A stretch of 64,000 nucleotides of DNA from Escherichia coli (GTDB taxonomy: Bacteria; Pseudomonadota; Gammaproteobacteria; Enterobacterales; Enterobacteriaceae), in assembly GCF_002854065.1 (NCBI RefSeq), contig NZ_CP024147.1. One strand, given 5' to 3'. How positions within the stretch are numbered: the stretch's first letter is position 1; every line of letters begins with the position of its first letter. Under the pieces are notes generated by a model. The model was not told where the DNA came from. It saw nothing but the letters and a program-made list of their open reading frames with translations, and ran no database searches. Positions 149 through 46,094 of the stretch are shown one piece after another. The translations under genes and the position numbers were made by a program.

Positions 149-156
149 CTTTTCTG

Positions 157-1740
<1,584 letters not shown>

Positions 1741-1785
1741 TTAATTAGCATAACTGTAATGGTGACCATATGTGCAGGCCTACAA

Positions 1786-2214
1786 TTAGTGCCACCACAT
1801 CATGCCCTGAACGGTCGCTGCTGCAACTGCAACATAGCGTAACGCTTTACCAAGGCACAAAAAAAAGATTACCGGCCCCCAGGAGATGCGCATCCATCCC
1901 GCTAACAGACACAGTAAATCGCCAACCACGGGCATCCAGCTTAATAATAGCGTGACTGCACCATAGCGTTTCAGCCAGCCGGTAGCTTTCTCTTGCCAGC
2001 GCGATGTTTTACGCAATGGAAAGAAACGCCCAAGGATAACGTTAGTTAACCCTCCAAGGCTATTACCCATTGTTGCTGTTAAAACTAAAACCCAGGGATG
2101 ACTGATCCCGGAAAGCAACATTGCCACCAGCACGACTTCGGAGTTGCCGGGTAATAGTGTAGCGCTGAGAAAACTACTGGCAAACAACGAGAAAAGCGAT
2201 AACGCTTCACTCAC
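1786..2214 (-). CDS. yqaA: DedA/YqaA-family inner membrane protein
   Basis: 142-aa hydrophobic ORF in the expected position after gshA. Confidence 0.85.
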   Translation of the reverse strand: MSEALSLFSLFASSFLSATLLPGNSEVVLVAMLLSGISHPWVLVLTATMGNSLGGLTNVILGRFFPLRKTSRWQEKATGWLKRYGAVTLLLSWMPVVGDLLCLLAGWMRISWGPVIFFLCLGKALRYVAVAAATVQGMMWWH

Positions 2215-2777
2215 AGCAAGCGAACATCCACAGCGTCCATGCCTGCTGCACGGGCCGCCTGAATACCGAAATCGGCATCTTCAAAGACCACACACTGCGT
2301 CGGTTGCACGCCCATACGCTGCGCGCACAACAAAAATGTGTCTGGCGCGGGTTTATGGTGTTTGACGTGATCGGCAGCGACGACGGCGTCAAAATAACGG
2401 CGTAATCCCAGGTGCGCCAGCAATGCCTCAGCGATGGCGCTTTCACTCCCCGTTCCTACAGCCATTGGGCGACGACCATGCCAACTTTTCACCACATCAA
2501 CAAGAGGAAGCGGTTCGACGCTATCCAGCAGCATACTTCTGACTGCTTCTGTTTTTTCACGCGCTAACGCATGCGGGTCGAGATCGGCCTGATTCAGCTC
2601 AATAATTGCCTGAGCAATACGCCAGGTGGGCGAGCCATTAAGCGCAATCATTGCCTGAACATCGTACTGAAGACCGTAGTGCCCTAATACTTCGCGCCAC
2701 GCTTTACGGTGCGTAGGCTCCGTATCCAGGATTGTGCCATCCATATCAAAAATTAAACCTGCATAACGCTCGTACAT
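2211..2777 (-). CDS. yqaB: HAD-family sugar phosphatase
   Basis: 188-aa ORF with HAD motif FDMDGTILDTE near the N-terminus; 4-bp overlap with yqaA. Confidence 0.9.
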   Translation of the reverse strand: MYERYAGLIFDMDGTILDTEPTHRKAWREVLGHYGLQYDVQAMIALNGSPTWRIAQAIIELNQADLDPHALAREKTEAVRSMLLDSVEPLPLVDVVKSWHGRRPMAVGTGSESAIAEALLAHLGLRRYFDAVVAADHVKHHKPAPDTFLLCAQRMGVQPTQCVVFEDADFGIQAARAAGMDAVDVRLL

Positions 2778-2921
2778 GGTCTTCTCGCAAGTCGAAAAAT
2801 ATGACGCTACTTTAGCGTAATTGCTTGATTTTGTCGCTGATGGCGAAGGAGAAGAAAATTCAGGAAATGGATAAAGTAGTTATTTAGAAATGAGATATTT
2901 TTGAAGGAAATTTTTTGGAGA

Positions 2922-3057
2922 AGATGGTGCATCCGGGAGGATGACTCACTGGCGTTCGCCCTTCGGGCCGTTGCTAAAGCAACGTTATCCTTCCTGGTGC
3001 CTGCGGTTAATTCCGCTACCTCTTCGATATCTTCATTGCTGAAGATTTCGGAGAATA
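2922..3057 (-). repeat. Repeat unit 1: truncated tRNA-Arg 3' end (2925-2941, 17 nt) fused to a ~116-bp hairpin-rich module, directly abutting the 3' end of the first intact tRNA-Arg
   Basis: TGGTGCATCCGGGAGGA matches the 3' end of the neighbouring tRNA-Arg genes then diverges; module contains palindromes CGTTGCTAAAGCAACG and GCCCTTCGGGC; a second copy is at 3536-3651. Confidence 0.7.
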
Positions 3058-3134
3058 TGGTGCATCCGGGAGGATTCGAACCTCCGACCGCTCGGTTCGT
3101 AGCCGAGTACTCTATCCAGCTGAGCTACGGATGC
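3058..3134 (-). tRNA. argQ: tRNA-Arg (anticodon ACG)
   Basis: Reverse complement gives GCATCCGTAGCTCAGCTGGATAGAGTACTCGGCTACGAACCGAGCGGTCGGAGGTTCGAATCCTCCCGGATGCACCA; copy name assigned by order only. Confidence 0.93.
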
Positions 3135-3236
3135 ATCGGGAAAATTTATTTTACTGCTGATATTGATATCGCTACTAAAGCCATATCAAATAAGAAAATC
3201 CATCTTAACCATCATCACTGATGATTACGGAGAATA

Positions 3237-3313
3237 TGGTGCATCCGGGAGGATTCGAACCTCCGACCGCTCGGTTCGTAGCCGAGTACTCTATCCAGCT
3301 GAGCTACGGATGC
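3237..3313 (-). tRNA. argZ: tRNA-Arg (anticodon ACG)
   Basis: Identical 77-nt tRNA-Arg sequence; copy name by order only. Confidence 0.93.
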
Positions 3314-3375
3314 ATCGGGAAATTTATTTTACTGCTGATATTGATACCGCTACTAAAGCCATATCAAGTAAGAGA

Positions 3376-3452
3376 TGGTGCATCCGGGAGGATTCGAACC
3401 TCCGACCGCTCGGTTCGTAGCCGAGTACTCTATCCAGCTGAGCTACGGATGC
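3376..3452 (-). tRNA. argY: tRNA-Arg (anticodon ACG)
   Basis: Identical 77-nt tRNA-Arg sequence; copy name by order only. Confidence 0.93.
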
Positions 3453-3535
3453 ATCGGGAAACTTACTTTACTGCAGATTTTTTGATACCGCTACTAAAGC
3501 CGTATCAAGTAAGAGATGGTGCATCCGGGAGGATT

Positions 3536-3651
3536 ACTCGCCTTGCGGCTCGCCCTTCGGGCCGTTGCTAAAGCAACGTTATCCTCCCTGGTGCCTGCGG
3601 TTAGTACCGCCACCTCTTCCATACCTTCATCGCTGAAGGTTACGGAGAATA
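3536..3651 (-). repeat. Repeat unit 2: truncated tRNA-Arg 3' end (3536-3554, 19 nt) fused to a ~97-bp hairpin-rich module, directly abutting the 3' end of the fourth tRNA-Arg
   Basis: TGGTGCATCCGGGAGGATT then divergence; same CGTTGCTAAAGCAACG / GCCCTTCGGGC module as unit 1. Confidence 0.7.
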
Positions 3652-3728
3652 TGGTGCATCCGGGAGGATTCGAACCTCCGACCGCTCGGTTCGTAGCCGA
3701 GTACTCTATCCAGCTGAGCTACGGATGC
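3652..3728 (-). tRNA. argV: tRNA-Arg (anticodon ACG)
   Basis: Identical 77-nt tRNA-Arg sequence, 3 bp from tRNA-Ser. Confidence 0.93.
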
Positions 3729-3731
3729 AAA

Positions 3732-3824
3732 TGGCGGTGAGGCGGGGATTCGAACCCCGGATGCAGCTTTTGACCGCATACTCCCTTAGCAGGGGAGCGC
3801 CTTCAGCCTCTCGGCCACCTCACC
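3732..3824 (-). tRNA. serV: tRNA-Ser (anticodon GCU)
   Basis: Reverse complement gives GGTGAGGTGGCCGAGAGGCTGAAGGCGCTCCCCTGCTAAGGGAGTATGCGGTCAAAAGCTGCATCCGGGGTTCGAATCCCCGCCTCACCGCCA with long variable arm. Confidence 0.93.
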
Positions 3825-3886
3825 ACACGCCTCTTACGAGTGCTTCGAAGAACTTGTTTATCGCTCATCGTCGCTGCGTGGCGCAC

Positions 3887-3914
3887 ATATTACTTTCTGA
3901 GACTTATAAGTCAA
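3887..3914 (-). promoter_or_regulatory. Putative sigma70 promoter of the serV-arg tRNA operon (-35 TTGACT, 16-bp spacer, -10 TAATAT, GC-rich discriminator)
   Basis: Motifs read on the minus strand about 55 nt upstream of the serV 5' end. Confidence 0.55.
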
Positions 3915-4140
3915 ACAATTTTTCCCACACTTTTATCGTTTGCACACTTCACGCTCAATTAGTCTGTAAAAACGTCAAAAAGAGTGTTTTATCAACAGAA
4001 AAAACGGAAGTCTGACAGATAGCAGTAATGTAAAAAAATGGAGACTTAAGTTGAATGAACGGGAGTAAAGCGAAAAGACTATAGAGTGAAGGAGAAATTT
4101 TGAGGGTGCGTCTCACCGATAAAGATGAGACGCGGAAAGA

Positions 4141-4326
4141 TTAGTAACTGGACTGCTGGGATTTTTCAGCCTGGATACGCTGGTAGATCTCTTCACGGTG
4201 AACAGAAACTTCCTTCGGGGCATTTACGCCAATACGTACCTGGTTGCCCTTTACCCCTAAAACTGTCACGGTGACCTCATCCCCAATCATGAGGGTCTCA
4301 CCAACTCGACGAGTCAGAATCAGCAT
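4141..4326 (-). CDS. csrA: Carbon storage regulator CsrA
   Basis: 61-aa [51 protein letters not shown]. Confidence 0.98.
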
Positions 4327-4560
4327 TCTTTGCTCCTTGAAAGATTAAAAGAGTCGGGTCTCTCTGTATCCCGGCATTATCCATCATATAACGCCAAAAA
4401 GTAAGCAATGACAAACACATTACATCTAAGCAGTCATGGCATTACATTCTGTTAAACCTAAGTTTAGCCGATATACACAACTTCAACCTGACTTTATCGT
4501 TGTCGATAGCGTTAATGCGAATGCCGTGAAGCGAGTCCACGGCATTGCCTGACGCTTATA

Positions 4561-7191
4561 TTATTGCAATTTCGCGCTGACCCAGCCTTTCACACTGGCT
4601 AACGCTGCAGGTAAGGCCGCAGCATCCGTACCACCGGCTTGCGCCATGTCAGGACGTCCACCCCCCTTGCCGCCCACCTGCTGAGCGACCATACCAATCA
4701 GTTCCCCTGCTTTCACACGATCTGTGACGTCCTTAGATACGCCTGCAATCAGAGAAACCTTACCTTCGGCTACCGTTGCCAGCACGATAATTGTCGACCC
4801 CAGCTGATTTTTTAAATCGTCAACCATGGTACGCAACATTTTCGGCTCAACACCGCTAAGCTCGCTAACCAACAGCTTAACACCATTAACATCAATTGCC
4901 TTACTGGAAAGATTTGCGCTCTCCTGTGCGGCAGCTTGTTCTTTAAGCTGTTGTAGTTCTTTTTCTAACTGACGCGTACGTTCCAGTACTGAGCGCACTT
5001 TATCAGCCAGATTATTGCTATCGCCTTTCAGCAGATGCGCGACTTCGCTTAAGCGATCGCTGTCTGCATGAACGGTGGCGATAGCGCCTTCTCCGGTTAC
5101 CGCTTCGATACGACGAACGCCTGCAGCAGTACCCGATTCAGAGATGATGCGGAACAGACCAATATCACCAGTGCGGCTGGCGTGAGTACCGCCACACAGC
5201 TCGGTGGAGAAATCGCCCATGCTCAGCACGCGTACGCGCTCATCATACTTCTCGCCGAACAGCGCCATCGCACCTTTCGCTTTCGCCGCTTCGAGATCCA
5301 TGATGTTGGTTTCGATCGGCAAATTGCGACGAATCTGTGCGTTCACCAGGTCTTCGACCGCACGAATCTCTTCTGGTTTCATCGCTTCGTTGTGTGAGAA
5401 GTCGAAGCGCAGCACCTTGTCGTTAACCAGTGAACCTTTCTGCGATACATGAGTACCCAGAACCTGGCGCAGCGCAGCGTGCATCAGGTGCGTTGCGGAG
5501 TGATTCAGACGAATACGGGCGCGACGAGCCTCATCAACATCAGCCTGCACCGCGTCGCCCACTTTCAGAGAACCCGCAGCAAGTTTACCGATGTGACCAA
5601 TCGCCTGGCCGTATTTCTGCGTATCTTCCACCGCAAAGGAGAAGTTAGCGCCTTTCAGTTCGCCTTTATCGCCAACCTGACCGCCGGATTCCGCATAGAA
5701 TGGCGTTTGATCCAGCACGACCACAGCTTCCTGGCCTGCATTGATGGCATCAACCGCTTTACCATCAACAAACAGCGCAGTCACTTTGCCGTTCAGTTCC
5801 AGATGGTCATAACCTTTAAATTCAGATGCACTGTCAACACGGATCATTGCGTTGTAATCGGCACCAAAGCCGCTGGCTTCGCGCGCGCGACGACGCTGCT
5901 CTTCCATTGCAGCTTCAAAACCAGCTTCGTCAACTTTGATGTTGCGCTCACGACAAACATCAGCCGTCAGGTCAACCGGGAAGCCATAGGTGTCGTACAG
6001 ACGGAAAGCAGTTTCACCATCCAGCGTATCACCAGAAAGTTTTGCCAGCTCTTCATCCAGCAACGCCAGACCGCGCTCCAGAGTACGAGCAAACTGCTCT
6101 TCTTCAGTCTTCAGCACCTGCTCAACCTGCGCCTGCTGGCGTTTCAGGTCTTCACCCGCAGAGCCCATAACGTCGATCAGCGGACCAACCAGTTTGTAGA
6201 AGAAGGTTTCTTTCGCGCCGAGCATATTACCGTGACGCACTGCGCGACGAATGATACGACGCAGTACATAACCACGGTTTTCATTGGACGGCATTACGCC
6301 ATCCGCGATCAGGAACGCACAAGAACGAATGTGGTCAGCGATTACGCGCAGCGATTTATTGCTCAGATCGGTTGCGCCAGTAACTTTCGCTACCGCCTGG
6401 ATCAACGTGCGGAACAGGTCGATGTCATAGTTAGAGTTAACGTGTTGCAGCACCGCAGCAATACGCTCCAGACCCATACCGGTATCTACAGACGGCTTCG
6501 GCAGCGGTTCCATCGTGCCATCGGCCTGGCGGTTGAACTGCATGAAGACGATGTTCCAGATCTCAATGTAGCGGTCGCCGTCTTCTTCCGGACTTCCCGG
6601 AGGGCCACCCCAAATGTGGTCGCCGTGATCGTAGAAGATTTCGGTGCACGGGCCGCACGGACCAGTGTCACCCATCTGCCAGAAGTTGTCAGATGCGTAT
6701 GGCGCACCTTTGTTATCGCCGATGCGAATAATACGTTCGCGCGGGATCCCGACTTCTTTTTCCCAGATTTCGTAGGCTTCGTCGTCGCTTTCATAGACGG
6801 TAACCCACAGACGCTCTTTCGGCAGGGCAAACCATTTTTCGCTGGTCAGCAGTTCCCATGCAAACTGAATGGCATCGTGTTTGAAATAGTCGCCGAAGCT
6901 GAAGTTGCCCAGCATTTCGAAGAAGGTATGGTGACGCGCGGTGTAACCGACGTTTTCCAGGTCGTTGTGTTTACCACCCGCACGCACGCAGCGTTGGGAA
7001 GTGGTAGCGCGGGAATAATTACGCTTGTCGAGCCCAAGGAACACATCCTTGAACTGGTTCATCCCGGCGTTGGTAAACAACAAAGTTGGGTCGTTATGGG
7101 GTACCAGGGAGCTGCTGGCAACTACCTGATGTCCCTTACTATGGAAAAAGTCGAGAAACGCCTGACGGATCTCAGCGGTGCTCTTGCTCAT
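4561..7191 (-). CDS. alaS: Alanine--tRNA ligase
   Basis: 876-aa ORF, N-terminus [24 protein letters not shown]. Confidence 0.97.
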
Positions 7192-33388: not shown

Positions 33389-35215
33389 TCAGGCTCCTCG
33401 TGAAACAATAATCACCACCAGTACCGCCAGTTCAACCAGCGCCATCCGGCGGAACAGCAACGCACTCCCCTCGCACTGCCAGCCCGGCACCAGCGACACC
33501 GGATTCAGCCATTTGCGCAGTTTCAGCACCGGCGCAAACGCCTGTTTCACCGGCATGGCAAAACCGTGAGCGGTAATCACCATTGATTTTTCGTGGTCGT
33601 AACCGCACACCCAGGCCGCACCGCGGGAACGCGATGGCAAACGATCGCCTTTGCAAATCGCCATAATGATGAATGGCAGCAGCGGGCAGGCAATCAGCAG
33701 CAACGTGATCATCGGTTGAGAAACGGTGGTGTTAGCAGGCTCCAGCGGCAGAGGTACAGCAGCAGACAGCATCGGCAGCAGCCACGGCGCAGCAACACCG
33801 CCAATTACGCAGCAAATCGCCAGTGCCACTACGCTTACGCTCATCAGGAGCGGCGCACAGGTGGCGTTTTCGGCTTCTTTGGTACGCGGCGCGCCGAGGA
33901 ACGTGACGCCATAGACTTTCGCCATACACATAACCGCCAGCGCACCGGTAATTGCCAGCCCCACAGCGAGCAGCGGCCCCAGCAGACGTGCAACAAACGC
34001 GCCACTATTGCTCAGTTTGAAAAAGGATTGATAGATAACCCATTCCCCGGCAAACCCGTTCAGCGGCGGCAGCGCAGCCATTGCCATCAACCCGACTAAC
34101 ATGGCGATGGAGATAACCGGCATTTTCTTGCCAATACCACCGAGTTTTTCGATATCGCGATGACCGGTACGGAACCAGACGCTCCCCGCCCCGAGGAACA
34201 GTACGCTTTTGAACAGGCTATGGTTAAGCAGATGGTACAGACCACCGACCAGGCCAAGAGCAATCAGCGCCGGTTGTTCGAGCGCGATACCCGTTACGCC
34301 AGCGCCCAGCCCCAGCAGGATAATGCCGATATTTTCCAGGGTGTGGTAAGCCAGTAGACGCTGGATGTTATGCTCCATCAGCGCATACAGACCACCGACG
34401 AACGCGGTGATCATACCGAGCACCAGCAGCGCGATCCCCCACCACAGCGGTGCATTACCACCCAGCAGCGACAGGGTTAAAATGCCCAGCAGGCCAATTT
34501 TCATGACTACCGTAGAAAACAACGCGGCAGCTGGCGCAGAGGCGTTCGCATGTGCCTGCGGCACCCAGCCGTGCAGCGGAATAATCCCGGCCAGCAGGCC
34601 AAAGCCAATCACACCGAGCAGCCAGATATCGGAACCGAGCGGCAGCTGTTGCATACGCATATCCAGCAGGCGCAGATCCAGCGTGCCGTAACGCTGCCAC
34701 AGCAGCCAGCAAGCAATCGCCAGCAGCAGAGTGCCAAGACGCCCCAGCGCAAACCACAGTTTGCCCTCTTTGCTGTTGTTGGTGAGGAACACCGCACACA
34801 AGGCCATGACTTCAGCCATTACCACGAACATGCCGAGGTTGCTGGCGATGACGGCGCAGACGGCGGCAGCCATCAACATATTGATCTGCAAGCCGTTGCA
34901 CTTCACCTGCGCGTGGCGATGCCAGTCAATGTTGTAGAGGCTGACAAACAGACCGCACAGACCGAGCGTAATCAGCCAAATCGCGTTAAGCGGAGAGATT
35001 TGCACATCGTAGCTTACCAGCGACAGCGCACCGCTCACGCCAACCGCGCCAGTCAGTACTGTGAAGCCCGCTGCTGCCGTATACAGACTACCAACCGCGC
35101 CGCCAATTCCGGCTATCCAGCCGCTTAGCGCCTTTTGAAAAGAAAAGAGAAATGCCAGAACAGCGGCGGCGACAAACCACGCCACGCCGCTATTGATCAG
35201 GGAAATTGCGCTCAT
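33389..35215 (-). CDS. hycC: Formate hydrogenlyase membrane subunit (NuoL-like)
   Basis: 608-aa polytopic membrane ORF. Confidence 0.93.
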   Translation of the reverse strand: MSAISLINSGVAWFVAAAVLAFLFSFQKALSGWIAGIGGAVGSLYTAAAGFTVLTGAVGVSGALSLVSYDVQISPLNAIWLITLGLCGLFVSLYNIDWHRHAQVKCNGLQINMLMAAAVCAVIASNLGMFVVMAEVMALCAVFLTNNSKEGKLWFALGRLGTLLLAIACWLLWQRYGTLDLRLLDMRMQQLPLGSDIWLLGVIGFGLLAGIIPLHGWVPQAHANASAPAAALFSTVVMKIGLLGILTLSLLGGNAPLWWGIALLVLGMITAFVGGLYALMEHNIQRLLAYHTLENIGIILLGLGAGVTGIALEQPALIALGLVGGLYHLLNHSLFKSVLFLGAGSVWFRTGHRDIEKLGGIGKKMPVISIAMLVGLMAMAALPPLNGFAGEWVIYQSFFKLSNSGAFVARLLGPLLAVGLAITGALAVMCMAKVYGVTFLGAPRTKEAENATCAPLLMSVSVVALAICCVIGGVAAPWLLPMLSAAVPLPLEPANTTVSQPMITLLLIACPLLPFIIMAICKGDRLPSRSRGAAWVCGYDHEKSMVITAHGFAMPVKQAFAPVLKLRKWLNPVSLVPGWQCEGSALLFRRMALVELAVLVVIIVSRGA

Positions 35216-35823
35216 TTAGCCTCTCCACTTTGAGCCTGCTGAAACAAGGTGAGATCGCCAAAGTCCGTGTTAAAGGTCAGCTCACGCTTACGTTTGCTGA
35301 CGCGGGCGATATCGGTGTTATCCACCAGATGCAGGGCTTTAGTCGGGCACATCCGCACGCAGGCCGGACCTTGTTCATCAAAGCTACAAAGGTCACATTT
35401 GACGGCGATCGCGCGAATACCTGGCACCCAGTCAAGCAATGTGCTGACACGCGCCGGAGCAGGCGGTGCCGGTGGCGCTTTCGGGGTATTGGCGTTTGCC
35501 GGAATATCCAGCGGACGGCTGCCGGAAAATTCGATTGCGCCAAACGGGCAGGCGATGCCGCACAGTTTGCAGCTTACGCACAGACTTTCATTCAACTGCA
35601 CGGCCCCATCAACGCGGGTGATGGCGTTAACCGGGCAGACCACCGCGCAGGGTGCATCTTCACAGTGGTGACAGAGCTGCGGCGCAGATTCTTTTTCATT
35701 GAGCATCACTCTCAGGCGCGGCATTGATTGCAGGCCGTGCTGGCGATGCGTCTCTGAACAGGCGGCCTCACAAGTGTGGCAACCGATACAGAGCGTGGAG
35801 TCAGCAATTACAAAACGATTCAC
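35212..35823 (-). CDS. hycB: Formate hydrogenlyase 4Fe-4S ferredoxin subunit
   Basis: 203-aa ORF with four CxxCxxCxxxCP motifs. Confidence 0.93.
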   Translation of the reverse strand: MNRFVIADSTLCIGCHTCEAACSETHRQHGLQSMPRLRVMLNEKESAPQLCHHCEDAPCAVVCPVNAITRVDGAVQLNESLCVSCKLCGIACPFGAIEFSGSRPLDIPANANTPKAPPAPPAPARVSTLLDWVPGIRAIAVKCDLCSFDEQGPACVRMCPTKALHLVDNTDIARVSKRKRELTFNTDFGDLTLFQQAQSGEAK

Positions 35824-35842: not shown

Positions 35843-35900
35843 TGTCATTTTTGACGAAAACATGCCGATGAAATGTCATTTTCGACACTCATCGACACGC
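35843..35900. promoter_or_regulatory. Putative FhlA-binding repeats in the hycA-hycB spacer
   Basis: ttgtcatttttgacgaaaacatgccgatgaaatgtcattttcgacactcatcgacacg contains repeated TGTCA/CGACA half-sites. Confidence 0.5.
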
Positions 35901-35947: not shown

Positions 35948-36409
35948 TCATGCTGCCGGGCTTTGTCCCTTTACCAGTTGGCTTAAATTCACCGGCACAT
36001 TGTTTTCAATGGCGGTGTATAAGCTGTCGTAAACGCCAGCGATTTTTTCGAGATAGTGTTCCAGAACCTGTTCGCGATCGCGGATGTTGACCTTGCCATC
36101 AATCATGCCGTCAATGCTCAGTTGCGCCTGCGCAATCCGCTGTTTGTCTTCGCCATCTTTTGTTTCGACGTAATACTCGATGGTGTGGCTGTTAAAGCCA
36201 TCCGCCAGGGTGACGTAAATACGAAAATGTTCAAAAAGGACGAAACAGAGTTCTTTGTCCGGCGCGCAGCTCATGGCGTGATGCAGGCGCGCTTTCGATA
36301 ACGTGATCCCCTGAACCAGCGAATTGCAGTAGATGTGCCACTGGTCCTGTAGGCGACGATGCCGCTGTGCGATGTAATCGGCTTTCTCGCTTATTTCCCA
36401 AATAGTCAT
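35948..36409 (-). CDS. hycA: Formate hydrogenlyase regulatory protein HycA
   Basis: 153-aa ORF MTIWEISEKADYIAQRHRRLQDQ. Confidence 0.93.
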   Translation of the reverse strand: MTIWEISEKADYIAQRHRRLQDQWHIYCNSLVQGITLSKARLHHAMSCAPDKELCFVLFEHFRIYVTLADGFNSHTIEYYVETKDGEDKQRIAQAQLSIDGMIDGKVNIRDREQVLEHYLEKIAGVYDSLYTAIENNVPVNLSQLVKGQSPAA

Positions 36410-42434: not shown

Positions 42435-42863
42435 ATGGCAGTTTCAGCAAGAAATCAATTAACCGGAACAGTTAGCGCAGTAGCAATGGGCGCGGTGAAT
42501 GACGAAGTAGAACTGACGCTGGCAGGTGGTGCAAAACTGGTGGCGATTGTTACACACAGCAGCCAACAGGCTCTGGGGCTGGCAAAAGGGAAAGAAGCGA
42601 TTGCCCTGATTAAAGCCCCGTGGGTAACGCTGGCCACGGAAGACTGTGGACTGAAATTCTCTGCTCGCAACCAGTTTGCTGGCAGCGTGTCGACAATCAC
42701 CGAAGGCGCAGTGAACGCCACTGTCCATATCAAAACGGATGCGGGTTTTGAAATTGTGGCAGTGGTAACAAATGAAAGTCAGGATGAAATGAAACTTACC
42801 ACTGGCTCACGCGTTATTGCGTTGATCAAAGCATCAGCAATCCTGATTGCTACCAAAGCGTAA
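42435..42863 (+). CDS. Standalone di-Mop (tandem TOBE) molbindin, predicted molybdate/tungstate-binding protein
   Basis: 142-aa ORF with strong SD AAAGGAGG 6 nt upstream; two ~70-aa repeats each starting SARNQ(L/F)(T/A)G(T/S)VS with the Mop/TOBE signature. Confidence 0.8.
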   Translation: MAVSARNQLTGTVSAVAMGAVNDEVELTLAGGAKLVAIVTHSSQQALGLAKGKEAIALIKAPWVTLATEDCGLKFSARNQFAGSVSTITEGAVNATVHIKTDAGFEIVAVVTNESQDEMKLTTGSRVIALIKASAILIATKA

Positions 42864-42901: not shown

Positions 42902-43246
42902 TTATTTCTTTGGACGATATTTTTCTGGCAACTCCGGCACCGGACGCTTGTCATCGATGAGATGACGCACGGTTAAGATCGGATGACGCCACAGCATTCT
43001 CGGCCCGGCCCAACGCATAATCTGTTTCATCTCTTCACGCTTTGCAGGCTGGTAACAGTGCACCGGACACTGCTTACAGGCTGGCTTCTCTTCGCCGAAC
43101 ACACATTTATCCAGCCGCTTTTGCGCGTAAACAAACAACGCCTCGTAATGCTCCGGCTCCGCTGACGCCTGCGGGCATTTCGCTTGATAAAGATCGATCA
43201 TTTTTTTAATCGTCAGTTTTTCACGAGAGATACGCTTGCCGGACAT
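42902..43246 (-). CDS. ygbA: YgbA-family protein (NsrR-regulon, nitrosative stress induced)
   Basis: 114-aa ORF MSGKRISREKLTIKKMIDLYQAKCPQ with CxxC...CxxC cysteines. Confidence 0.85.
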   Translation of the reverse strand: MSGKRISREKLTIKKMIDLYQAKCPQASAEPEHYEALFVYAQKRLDKCVFGEEKPACKQCPVHCYQPAKREEMKQIMRWAGPRMLWRHPILTVRHLIDDKRPVPELPEKYRPKK

Positions 43247-43261
43247 ACTGCCTCCACCTCA

Positions 43262-43294
43262 TTAAGATGCATTTATATTACAACTTAATCTTAA
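43262..43294. promoter_or_regulatory. Putative NsrR operator in the ygbA promoter region
   Basis: TTAAGATGCATTTatattacaacttAATCTTAA: AAGATGCATTT matches the NsrR half-site as I recall it; outer arms are inverted repeats. Confidence 0.5.
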
Positions 43295-43532
43295 AGGGCA
43301 CTATGACTCTAAAGAAGAAGGGTTAGCCAACCGATACAATTTTGCGTACTTGCTTCATAAGCATCACGCAAAAGCTGCAAAACAGCATCTTTCCCGGAAC
43401 CAGCATCAAGAACTCGCCGTTCGCTTCTTCCCCTGAAATGATTAACTCCGGTATCATGTGCGCCTTATGTGATTACAACGAAAATAAAAACCATCACACC
43501 CCATTTAATATCAGGGAACCGGACATAACCCC

Positions 43533-46094
43533 ATGAGTGCAATAGAAAATTTCGACGCCCATACGCCCATGATGCAGCAGTATCTCAAGCTGAAAGCCCA
43601 GCATCCCGAGATCCTGCTGTTTTACCGGATGGGTGATTTTTATGAACTGTTTTATGACGACGCAAAACGCGCGTCGCAACTGCTGGATATTTCACTGACC
43701 AAACGCGGTGCTTCGGCGGGAGAGCCGATCCCGATGGCGGGGATTCCCTACCATGCGGTGGAAAACTACCTCGCCAAACTGGTGAATCAGGGCGAGTCCG
43801 TTGCCATCTGCGAACAAATTGGCGATCCGGCGACCAGCAAAGGTCCGGTTGAGCGCAAAGTTGTGCGTATCGTTACGCCAGGCACCATCAGCGATGAAGC
43901 CCTGTTGCAGGAGCGTCAGGACAACCTGCTGGCGGCTATCTGGCAGGACAGCAAAGGTTTCGGCTACGCGACGCTGGATATCAGCTCCGGGCGTTTTCGC
44001 CTGAGCGAACCGGCTGACCGGGAAACGATGGCGGCAGAACTGCAACGCACTAATCCTGCGGAATTGCTGTATGCAGAAGATTTTGCTGAAATGTCGTTAA
44101 TTGAAGGCCGTCGCGGCCTGCGCCGTCGCCCGCTGTGGGAGTTTGAAATCGACACCGCGCGCCAGCAGTTGAATCTGCAATTTGGGACCCGCGATCTGGT
44201 CGGTTTTGGCGTCGAGAACGCGCCGCGCGGACTTTGTGCTGCCGGTTGTCTGTTGCAGTATGCGAAAGATACCCAACGTACGACTCTGCCGCATATTCGT
44301 TCCATCACCATGGAACGTGAGCAGGACAGCATCATTATGGATGCCGCGACGCGTCGTAATCTGGAAATCACCCAGAACCTGGCGGGTGGTGCGGAAAATA
44401 CGCTGGCTTCTGTGCTCGACTGCACCGTCACGCCGATGGGCAGCCGTATGCTGAAACGCTGGCTGCATATGCCAGTGCGCGATACCCGCGTGTTGCTTGA
44501 GCGCCAGCAAACTATTGGCGCATTGCAGGATTTCACCGCCGAGTTACAGCCGGTACTGCGTCAGGTGGGCGATCTGGAACGTATTCTGGCGCGTCTGGCG
44601 TTGCGTACTGCTCGCCCGCGCGATCTGGCCCGTATGCGCCATGCTTTCCAGCAACTGCCGGAACTGCGCGCGCAGTTAGAAAATGTCGATAGTGCACCGG
44701 TACAGGCGCTGCGTGAGAAGATGGGCGAGTTTGCCGAACTGCGCGATCTGCTGGAGCGGGCAATCATCGACACACCACCAGTGCTGGTACGCGACGGTGG
44801 TGTTATCGCACCGGGCTATAACGAAGAGCTGGATGAGTGGCGGGCGCTGGCTGACGGCGCGACCGATTATCTGGAGCGTCTGGAAATCCGCGAGCGTGAA
44901 CGTACCGGCCTGGACACGCTGAAAGTCGGATTTAACGCGGTGCATGGTTATTACATTCAGATCAGCCGTGGACAAAGCCATCTGGCCCCCATCAACTACA
45001 TGCGTCGCCAGACGCTGAAAAATGCCGAGCGCTACATTATTCCAGAGCTAAAAGAGTACGAAGATAAAGTTCTCACCTCAAAAGGCAAAGCACTGGCACT
45101 GGAAAAACAGCTTTATGAAGAGCTGTTCGACCTGCTGTTGCCGCATCTGGAAGCGTTGCAACAGAGCGCAAGCGCGCTGGCAGAACTTGATGTGCTGGTT
45201 AACCTGGCGGAGCGGGCCTATACCCTGAACTACACCTGCCCGACTTTTATTGATAAACCGGGTATTCGCATCACCGAAGGCCGCCATCCGGTGGTTGAAC
45301 AGGTGCTGAATGAGCCGTTTATCGCCAACCCGCTGAACCTGTCGCCACAGCGTCGCATGTTGATCATTACCGGTCCGAATATGGGCGGTAAAAGTACCTA
45401 TATGCGCCAGACCGCACTGATTGCGCTGATGGCCTACATCGGCAGCTATGTACCGGCACAAAAAGTTGAGATTGGACCTATCGATCGCATCTTTACCCGC
45501 GTAGGGGCAGCGGATGATCTGGCATCCGGGCGTTCAACCTTTATGGTGGAAATGACCGAAACCGCCAATATTTTACATAACGCCACCGAATACAGTCTGG
45601 TGTTAATGGATGAGATCGGGCGTGGAACGTCCACTTACGATGGTCTGTCACTGGCATGGGCGTGCGCGGAAAATCTGGCGAATAAGATTAAGGCATTGAC
45701 GCTGTTTGCTACCCACTATTTCGAGCTGACCCAGTTACCGGAGAAAATGGAAGGCGTCGCCAACGTGCATCTCGATGCACTGGAGCACGGCGACACCATT
45801 GCCTTTATGCATAGCGTGCAGGATGGCGCGGCGAGCAAAAGCTACGGCCTGGCGGTTGCAGCTCTGGCGGGCGTGCCAAAAGAGGTGATTAAGCGCGCAC
45901 GGCAAAAACTGCGTGAGCTGGAAAGTATTTCGCCGAACGCCGCCGCTACACAAGTGGATGGTACGCAAATGTCTTTGCTGTCAGTACCGGAAGAAACCTC
46001 GCCAGCGGTCGAAGCTCTGGAAAATCTCGACCCGGATTCACTAACTCCGCGTCAGGCGCTGGAATGGATTTATCGCTTGAAGAGTCTGGTGTAA
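43533..46094 (+). CDS. mutS: DNA mismatch repair protein MutS
   Basis: 853-aa [43 protein letters not shown] with Walker [10 protein letters not shown]. Confidence 0.98.

Follow-up and report, generated by a model that had tools for sequence, protein, structure and literature searches.

A two-half-site NsrR operator upstream of ygbA in Escherichia coli and its likely overlap with the -10 hexamer

The 23 bp at 43264-43286 of the window, which is the whole stretch of 64,000 nucleotides (64 kb) of E. coli DNA analyzed here, are the already published NsrR operator of ygbA and belong to the ordinary type with two half-sites. The site is an 11-1-11 inverted repeat, AAGATGCATTT-A-TATTACAACTT, centered on a dyad at 43275, and was recognized by its matrix score, its identity to published sites and its conservation. 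The probability that it is the operator for NsrR control of ygbA, with the overlap of the -10 hexamer and the occlusion of the promoter included in the reading, is put at about 93%. The operator itself is already known, as is the place of ygbA in the nitrosative-stress regulon of NsrR. The analysis fixes the operator boundaries at 43264-43286 instead of the 33 bp marked earlier, attributes the apparent degeneracy of the distal half to overlap with the likely -10 hexamer and not to weakness, and assigns the site to ygbA rather than to mutS; its importance beyond correct annotation is small. What this work itself shows is the match in sequence, with its significance and conservation, and the fixed position relative to ygbA.

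Locus and motif match

The window includes the fhlA–ygbA–mutS region of the E. coli chromosome, of which the segment 42850-43560 was present in 5419 of the 5426 complete E. coli genomes, three of them being 100% identical. The RefSeq annotation of an identical genome places fhlA before a TOBE-domain gene (42435-42863, + strand), followed by ygbA (42902-43246, - strand, 114 amino acids), a hypothetical ORF of 44 amino acids (43323-43457, - strand) and mutS (43533-46094, + strand). The regulated gene, ygbA, was also found in the ORF listing, and its product matched the Pfam family PF11756 (YgbA_NO) with E = 1e-40. Direct reading of the sequence gives a ygbA Shine-Dalgarno element GGAGG at 43251-43255 (- strand), 4 nt before the ATG at 43246, and a G-rich block at 43253-43256 is conserved among 81 orthologous promoters. 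The region marked by the first-pass annotation, 43262-43294 (TTAAGATGCATTTATATTACAACTTAATCTTAA), lies 16-48 nt upstream of this ATG, within the 286-bp spacer between ygbA and mutS. The mutS start codon is at 43533, 247 nt from the operator.

The neighboring genes differ in part from those of K-12. The TOBE gene, molybdate-binding and similar to the C-terminal part of ModE, is located between fhlA and ygbA here and is absent in K-12, where fhlA directly adjoins ygbA; also, YgbA has 114 amino acids here and 117 in K-12, with a different 3' end of the gene. According to PMC7232297, the interval between fhlA and mutS is a hotspot for insertions (SPI-1, sitABCD), with ygbA as an older resident. Many RefSeq E. 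coli genomes carry an annotation for the 44-amino-acid ORF at 43323-43457, which had no Pfam match; its span includes a terminator-like hairpin (43386-43374, - strand) as well as a perfect 8-bp inverted repeat (43340-43347 and 43366-43373). The ORF is unlikely to be a real gene; the repeats in this span might be related to mutS regulation.

For the motif search, the published sites were taken from Table 4 of Mehta et al. 2015 (PMC5320621), which has 27 rows of 11-1-11 NsrR sites of strain CFT073. A palindromic weight matrix was built from 24 distinct sites (48 halves), leaving out those of ygbA and hycB, and tail probabilities were obtained by exact calculation of the score distribution. With this matrix, the allele of the window (AAGATGCATTTATATTACAACTT, 43264-43286) scored 23.9 bits and was the best match in the 64 kb, having p = 3.8e-9 at the composition of the window and 4.4e-8 at that of the AT-richer spacer, so that about 0.0002-0.003 matches this good are expected per 64 kb. 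Placed beside the 24 sites from which the matrix was made, the score would rank about 6th. The site has 4 mismatches to the idealized AAGATGCATTTnAAATGCATCTT, which no other position in the window equals. The spacing of 1 nt between the halves also defines a single register, with offsets around 43264 all scoring negative except for a shadow of 10.3 bits at +6. The expectation of an NsrR site ahead of ygbA, raised by the first-pass annotation together with a motif scan as its check, was thus borne out by a significant score for a site that had been kept out of training (as had hycB) and that matches the published CFT073 site in all but 1 nt. The gene nsrR lies outside the window and was found in 5425 of the 5426 complete E. 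coli genomes (at least 95% identity).

The proximal half-site, AAGATGCATTT at 43264-43274 (+ strand), reached the highest score that the half-site matrix allows, 16.0 bits, and was the best 11-mer in the window. It equals the consensus derived from the 48 published NsrR half-sites, as the earlier description of a perfect left half had it, and is also the half-site of ytfE. The distal half-site, TATTACAACTT at 43276-43286 (read as AAGTTGTAATA on the - strand), lies 1 nt from the proximal half and scored 7.7 bits, near the 25th percentile of the 48 published halves, whose 5th to 95th percentiles extend from 5.5 to 16.0 bits. The two halves agree at 7 of the 11 positions.

NsrR-like elements were also observed elsewhere in the window. 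The runner-up of the 23-bp scan, AACATGCCGATGAAATGTCATTT at 35859-35881 (14.5 bits, not used in training), is a second published site, the reverse complement being the CFT073 hycB site, for which an NsrR ChIP-seq peak has been reported (PMC5320621); it is located between hycA (35948-36409, - strand) and hycB (35212-35823, - strand). An isolated half-site, AAGTTTCATTT at 42787-42797 (- strand), ranks second among all 11-mers of the window (14.5 bits) and falls within the 3' end of the TOBE gene. As the 23-mer around it (42775-42797) has just 11.6 bits, it is probably a chance match.

The regulation of the gene is known from the literature, which provides the NsrR- and NO-dependent expression and the in vivo binding in K-12. 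Holo-NsrR belongs to the Rrf2 family and acts as a repressor in the form of a winged-helix homodimer, whose Fe-S cluster is labile to NO (PMC5320621). The original personal communication on this regulation is recorded in PMC1274295. Regulation of E. coli ygbA by NsrR was described in K-12 (Bodenmiller and Spiro 2006, as cited in PMC5320621), and ChIP-chip in K-12 had NsrR bound to the ygbA promoter (Partridge et al. 2009, cited in PMC5320621). In Salmonella, ygbA was up 31.8-fold in an nsrR mutant (PMC2884951). In CFT073, ygbA is among the genes most induced by nitrate/NO; ChIP-seq gave no NsrR peak there, which its authors think is probably a false negative (PMC5320621). Applied to the site described here, one NsrR homodimer carrying the NO-sensing [4Fe-4S] cluster would bind the 23-bp 11-1-11 repeat, and NO would nitrosylate the cluster, lowering the affinity for DNA and leading to de-repression of ygbA.

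Conservation and the predicted ygbA promoter

A genome scan for YgbA yielded 80 loci, one per species, which together with the window gave 81 aligned promoters. These cover Escherichia, Citrobacter, Salmonella, Enterobacter, Klebsiella, Raoultella, Kluyvera, Lelliottia, Leclercia, Rahnella and other genera. When the 130 nt ahead of the ygbA start were scored in each of the 80 loci, the best NsrR match always ended 12-25 nt short of the ATG, and in 79 loci this match is also the best of the whole locus of about 3.3 kb (median of 21.4 bits at the upstream site vs 6.7 bits for the best match elsewhere in the locus). A MAFFT alignment of the 81 promoters, made without the matrix, delimited the conserved block as 43264-43286, next to which conservation is weaker at 43287-43288 and 43262-43263, and the same block was obtained from the alignment anchored on the matrix. 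Within the block, the constraint is mirror-symmetric. Numbered in the orientation of ygbA, A1, A2 and G6 on one side and C18, T22 and T23 on the other are each kept in 99-100% of the 81 species, and positions 1, 2, 6 and 8 of the distal half are invariant or nearly so, the first three being the mirror images of 23, 22 and 18.

The gene to which the operator belongs also follows from this comparison. The gene mutS was found within 1.5 kb upstream of ygbA in 24 of the 80 loci only, while the operator is at its usual place in essentially all 80. The earlier remark that the site lies in a spacer shared with the mutS promoter region describes no more than a coincidence of position, seen in Escherichia and some relatives. 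The operator is that of ygbA, and the present data hold no evidence for an action on mutS.

Positions 7-12 of the site in the orientation of ygbA read T, A, T/A, T/A, A, T among the 81 species, with T7, A8 and T12 invariant and A11 at 99%. The hexamers found at this place are TATTAT (51 loci), TAAAAT, TAATAT, TAGAAT and a few others, and 70 of the 80 loci match TATAAT at 5 of 6 positions, the E. coli hexamer having only 4 of 6. Published NsrR sites have a different composition at this place. Position 11 of their half-sites is T in 81% and A in 10% of cases, the central base has no preference, and TAnnnT occurs in just 3 of the 24. From conservation alone, TAATAT at 43275-43280 (- strand) is therefore assigned as the putative -10 hexamer of ygbA, and the operator would contain it.

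The candidate -35 element, TAGTGC at 43298-43303 (- strand), is weak, matching TTGACA at 2 of 6 positions, and lies 17 nt upstream of the -10 hexamer; in this element T/C-T-G is conserved at 43303-43301 at the fixed 17-nt spacing, with the G in 93% of the 81 species. By geometry only, the ygbA transcription start is predicted at 43267-43269 (- strand), which is in the proximal half and about 6-8 nt downstream from the -10 hexamer, and from a start near 43268 the ygbA leader would have about 21 nt. A sigma-70 consensus scan of 43150-43600 called no promoter. The Cappable-seq supplements, in both MG1655 coordinate versions, had no entry around the predicted start, which probably reflects incomplete files or a repressed gene that escaped detection.

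With these assignments, the operator would span the putative -10 hexamer (43280-43275, - strand) as well as the predicted start at about 43268, and bound NsrR would thereby keep RNA polymerase from forming the open complex, a steric occlusion that we infer from the layout. The overlap also offers an explanation for the distal half, whose bases would have to act as a -10 element at the same time and would for this reason differ from the NsrR consensus. Its degeneracy thus appears to be dual coding and not decay into a weak or half-site operator. A further conjecture is that, with the distal half locked to TAnnAT in at least 80 Enterobacterales species as the apparent -10 hexamer of ygbA, NsrR affinity and promoter strength are evolutionarily coupled at this gene; it is improbable.

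A NarL/NarP-like sequence of the 7-2-7 type, TGACTCTAAAGAAGAA, was observed near the promoter at 43304-43319, its center being about 43.5 nt upstream of the predicted ygbA start. It has 3 mismatches, is equaled by 21 positions in the 64 kb, and is kept in Escherichia and not across genera.

The 33-bp palindrome and alternative readings

The segment 43262-43294 forms a palindrome of 16+1+16 nt that is imperfect, the arms (43262-43277 and 43279-43294) being complementary at 12 of 16 pairs (75%); the outer arms, TTAAGAT and ATCTTAA, are perfect 7-mers. Its sequence, coordinates and palindromic character are as the first-pass annotation described them, but the palindrome does not go beyond chance and is not the binding unit. 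The window has 6 centers with at least 12 of 16 pairs, and Markov-1 simulations gave 2.8 +/- 2.0. Its dyad is at 43278, vs 43275 for the NsrR site. The outer right arm comes from the second copy of a 6-bp tandem repeat, AACTTA|ATCTTA, read directly from the sequence at 43282-43293, whose K-12 counterpart consists of two perfect copies of ATCTTA; outside E. coli this second copy is not conserved. This second copy also forms a third element resembling a half-site, AAGATTAAGTT (the reverse complement of 43282-43292), which scored 7.66 bits and is 7 nt, not 1 nt, from the proximal half, and the register-shifted 23-mer at 43270-43292 scored only 10.3 bits. Columns 43289-43294 carry 0.02-0.20 bits each across the 81 orthologous promoters and are variable even among Escherichia species. 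The second half had been placed wrongly as AATCTTAA at 43287-43294, which is outside the operator, the true partner being TATTACAACTT at 43276-43286. The palindrome was rejected as a functional unit on the grounds of chance expectation, spacing and missing conservation.

It would be a long shot to propose that the E. coli-specific tandem duplication gives NsrR a second register or a second dimer, tuning the repression threshold between lineages in combination with a dual-coded operator. Another reading makes the 33-bp palindrome with its dyad at 43278 the actual unit, in which NsrR uses the proximal half with AAGATTAAGTT across the 7-nt gap, or in which a second dimer or a shifted register tunes repression in E. 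coli, and has hardly any probability. The 12 of 16 pairs with perfect 7-bp ends would speak for it, but pairing of this extent is not above chance (6 observed vs 2.8 +/- 2.0 expected). Likewise, AAGATTAAGTT equals the true distal half in score (7.66 bits) and the shifted 23-mer at 43270-43292 reaches 10.3 bits, but a 7-nt gap misfits the 11-1-11 architecture of the published sites. The 6-bp repeat is present in K-12 too, although 43289-43294 hold only 0.02-0.20 bits and AAGAT changes to ATGAT or AAAAT within Escherichia.

The reading in which only the proximal half at 43264-43274 is functional, with NsrR bound to a single 11-bp motif and exerting weak repression, is very unlikely, and the earlier suggestion of a weak or half-site operator is not supported. 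It has been put forward that one 11-bp motif by itself is enough for NsrR to bind (Partridge et al. 2009, cited in PMC5320621), and the distal half matches the proximal one at just 7 of 11 positions; however, a recognizable second half exists at the 1-nt spacing, its 7.7 bits are in the normal range of 5.5-16.0 bits, the full site scores above hmp (21.6 bits) and the K-12 allele is symmetric at 9 of 11 positions. The CFT073 ChIP-seq without a ygbA peak (PMC5320621) would agree with weak binding, whereas the 31.8-fold de-repression in Salmonella (PMC2884951) and the ygbA expression data of CFT073 (PMC5320621) oppose it. Furthermore, A1, A2 and G6 lie outside the -10 hexamer and are still kept in 99-100% of the 81 species, mirroring C18, T22 and T23. 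Mirror-symmetric conservation is the prediction for a dyad-symmetric dimer site, which argues against an operator with a half-site only. The remaining reading, in which the block is a mere core promoter or the site of FNR, CRP, Fur, IscR or NarL/NarP and its likeness to NsrR sites is incidental, is the least credible of all. It draws on the AT-richness of the block, the apparent -10 hexamer inside it and the weak NarL/NarP 7-2-7-like match nearby at 43304-43319, which, however, lacks conservation between genera. Within 43247-43340, even the best matches to FNR, CRP, Fur and IscR (type 1 and type 2) are poor, with 151-4789 window positions at least as good, vs exactly 1 for NsrR, and a promoter alone does not account for a mirror-symmetric pattern with A1 and A2 upstream and C18, T22 and T23 downstream of the -10 hexamer. 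The two-half-site NsrR operator at 43264-43286 is hence the reading retained here.

Alleles and comparison with known NsrR operators

The ygbA sites of CFT073 and K-12 have in common with that of the window the locus, the position relative to the ATG and the 11-1-11 architecture. The CFT073 site, AAGGTGCATTTATATTACAACTT (Table 4 of PMC5320621), is identical at 22 of 23 positions and scored 22.4 bits vs 23.9 here, the single difference being position 4, which is G there and A here. The K-12 sequence, AAGATGTATTTATATTACATCTT, is identical at 21 of 23 positions, scored 23.5 bits and is symmetric at 9 of 11; it has T instead of C at position 7 and T instead of A at position 20. All of these differences (positions 4, 7 and 20) fall at positions where the motif is tolerant. 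The 81 bp at 43235-43315, which include the operator allele of the window, were 100% identical in several O157:H7 genomes, and the same 81-bp query had a megablast match in 1855 of the 5426 E. coli genomes. There are at least three operator alleles within E. coli, namely the K-12 type, the O157/window type and the CFT073 type.

In the alignment of the 81 promoters and the consensus scans of 43247-43340, no conserved site for a second regulator was found for ygbA. This differs from hmp, which is also under FNR and other regulators (PMC5320621). The hmp operator, TTGATGTATCTCAAATGCATCTT, is an imperfect 11-1-11 repeat like that of ygbA, with one good and one degenerate half and 7 of 11 pairs; it is identical to the reverse complement at 16 of 23 positions and scored 21.6 bits, below the 23.9 bits of ygbA. 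The ytfE operator, AAGATGCATTTAAAATGCATCTT, which the first-pass annotation had named with hmp for comparison, has the same 11-1-11 architecture, an identical proximal half and 19 of 23 identical positions overall. It is a perfect palindrome with 11 of 11 pairs and 32.3 bits, whereas the ygbA site has 7 of 11 pairs. The ygbA site is below ytfE in pairing and score because its distal half has TAATAT instead of the consensus bases.
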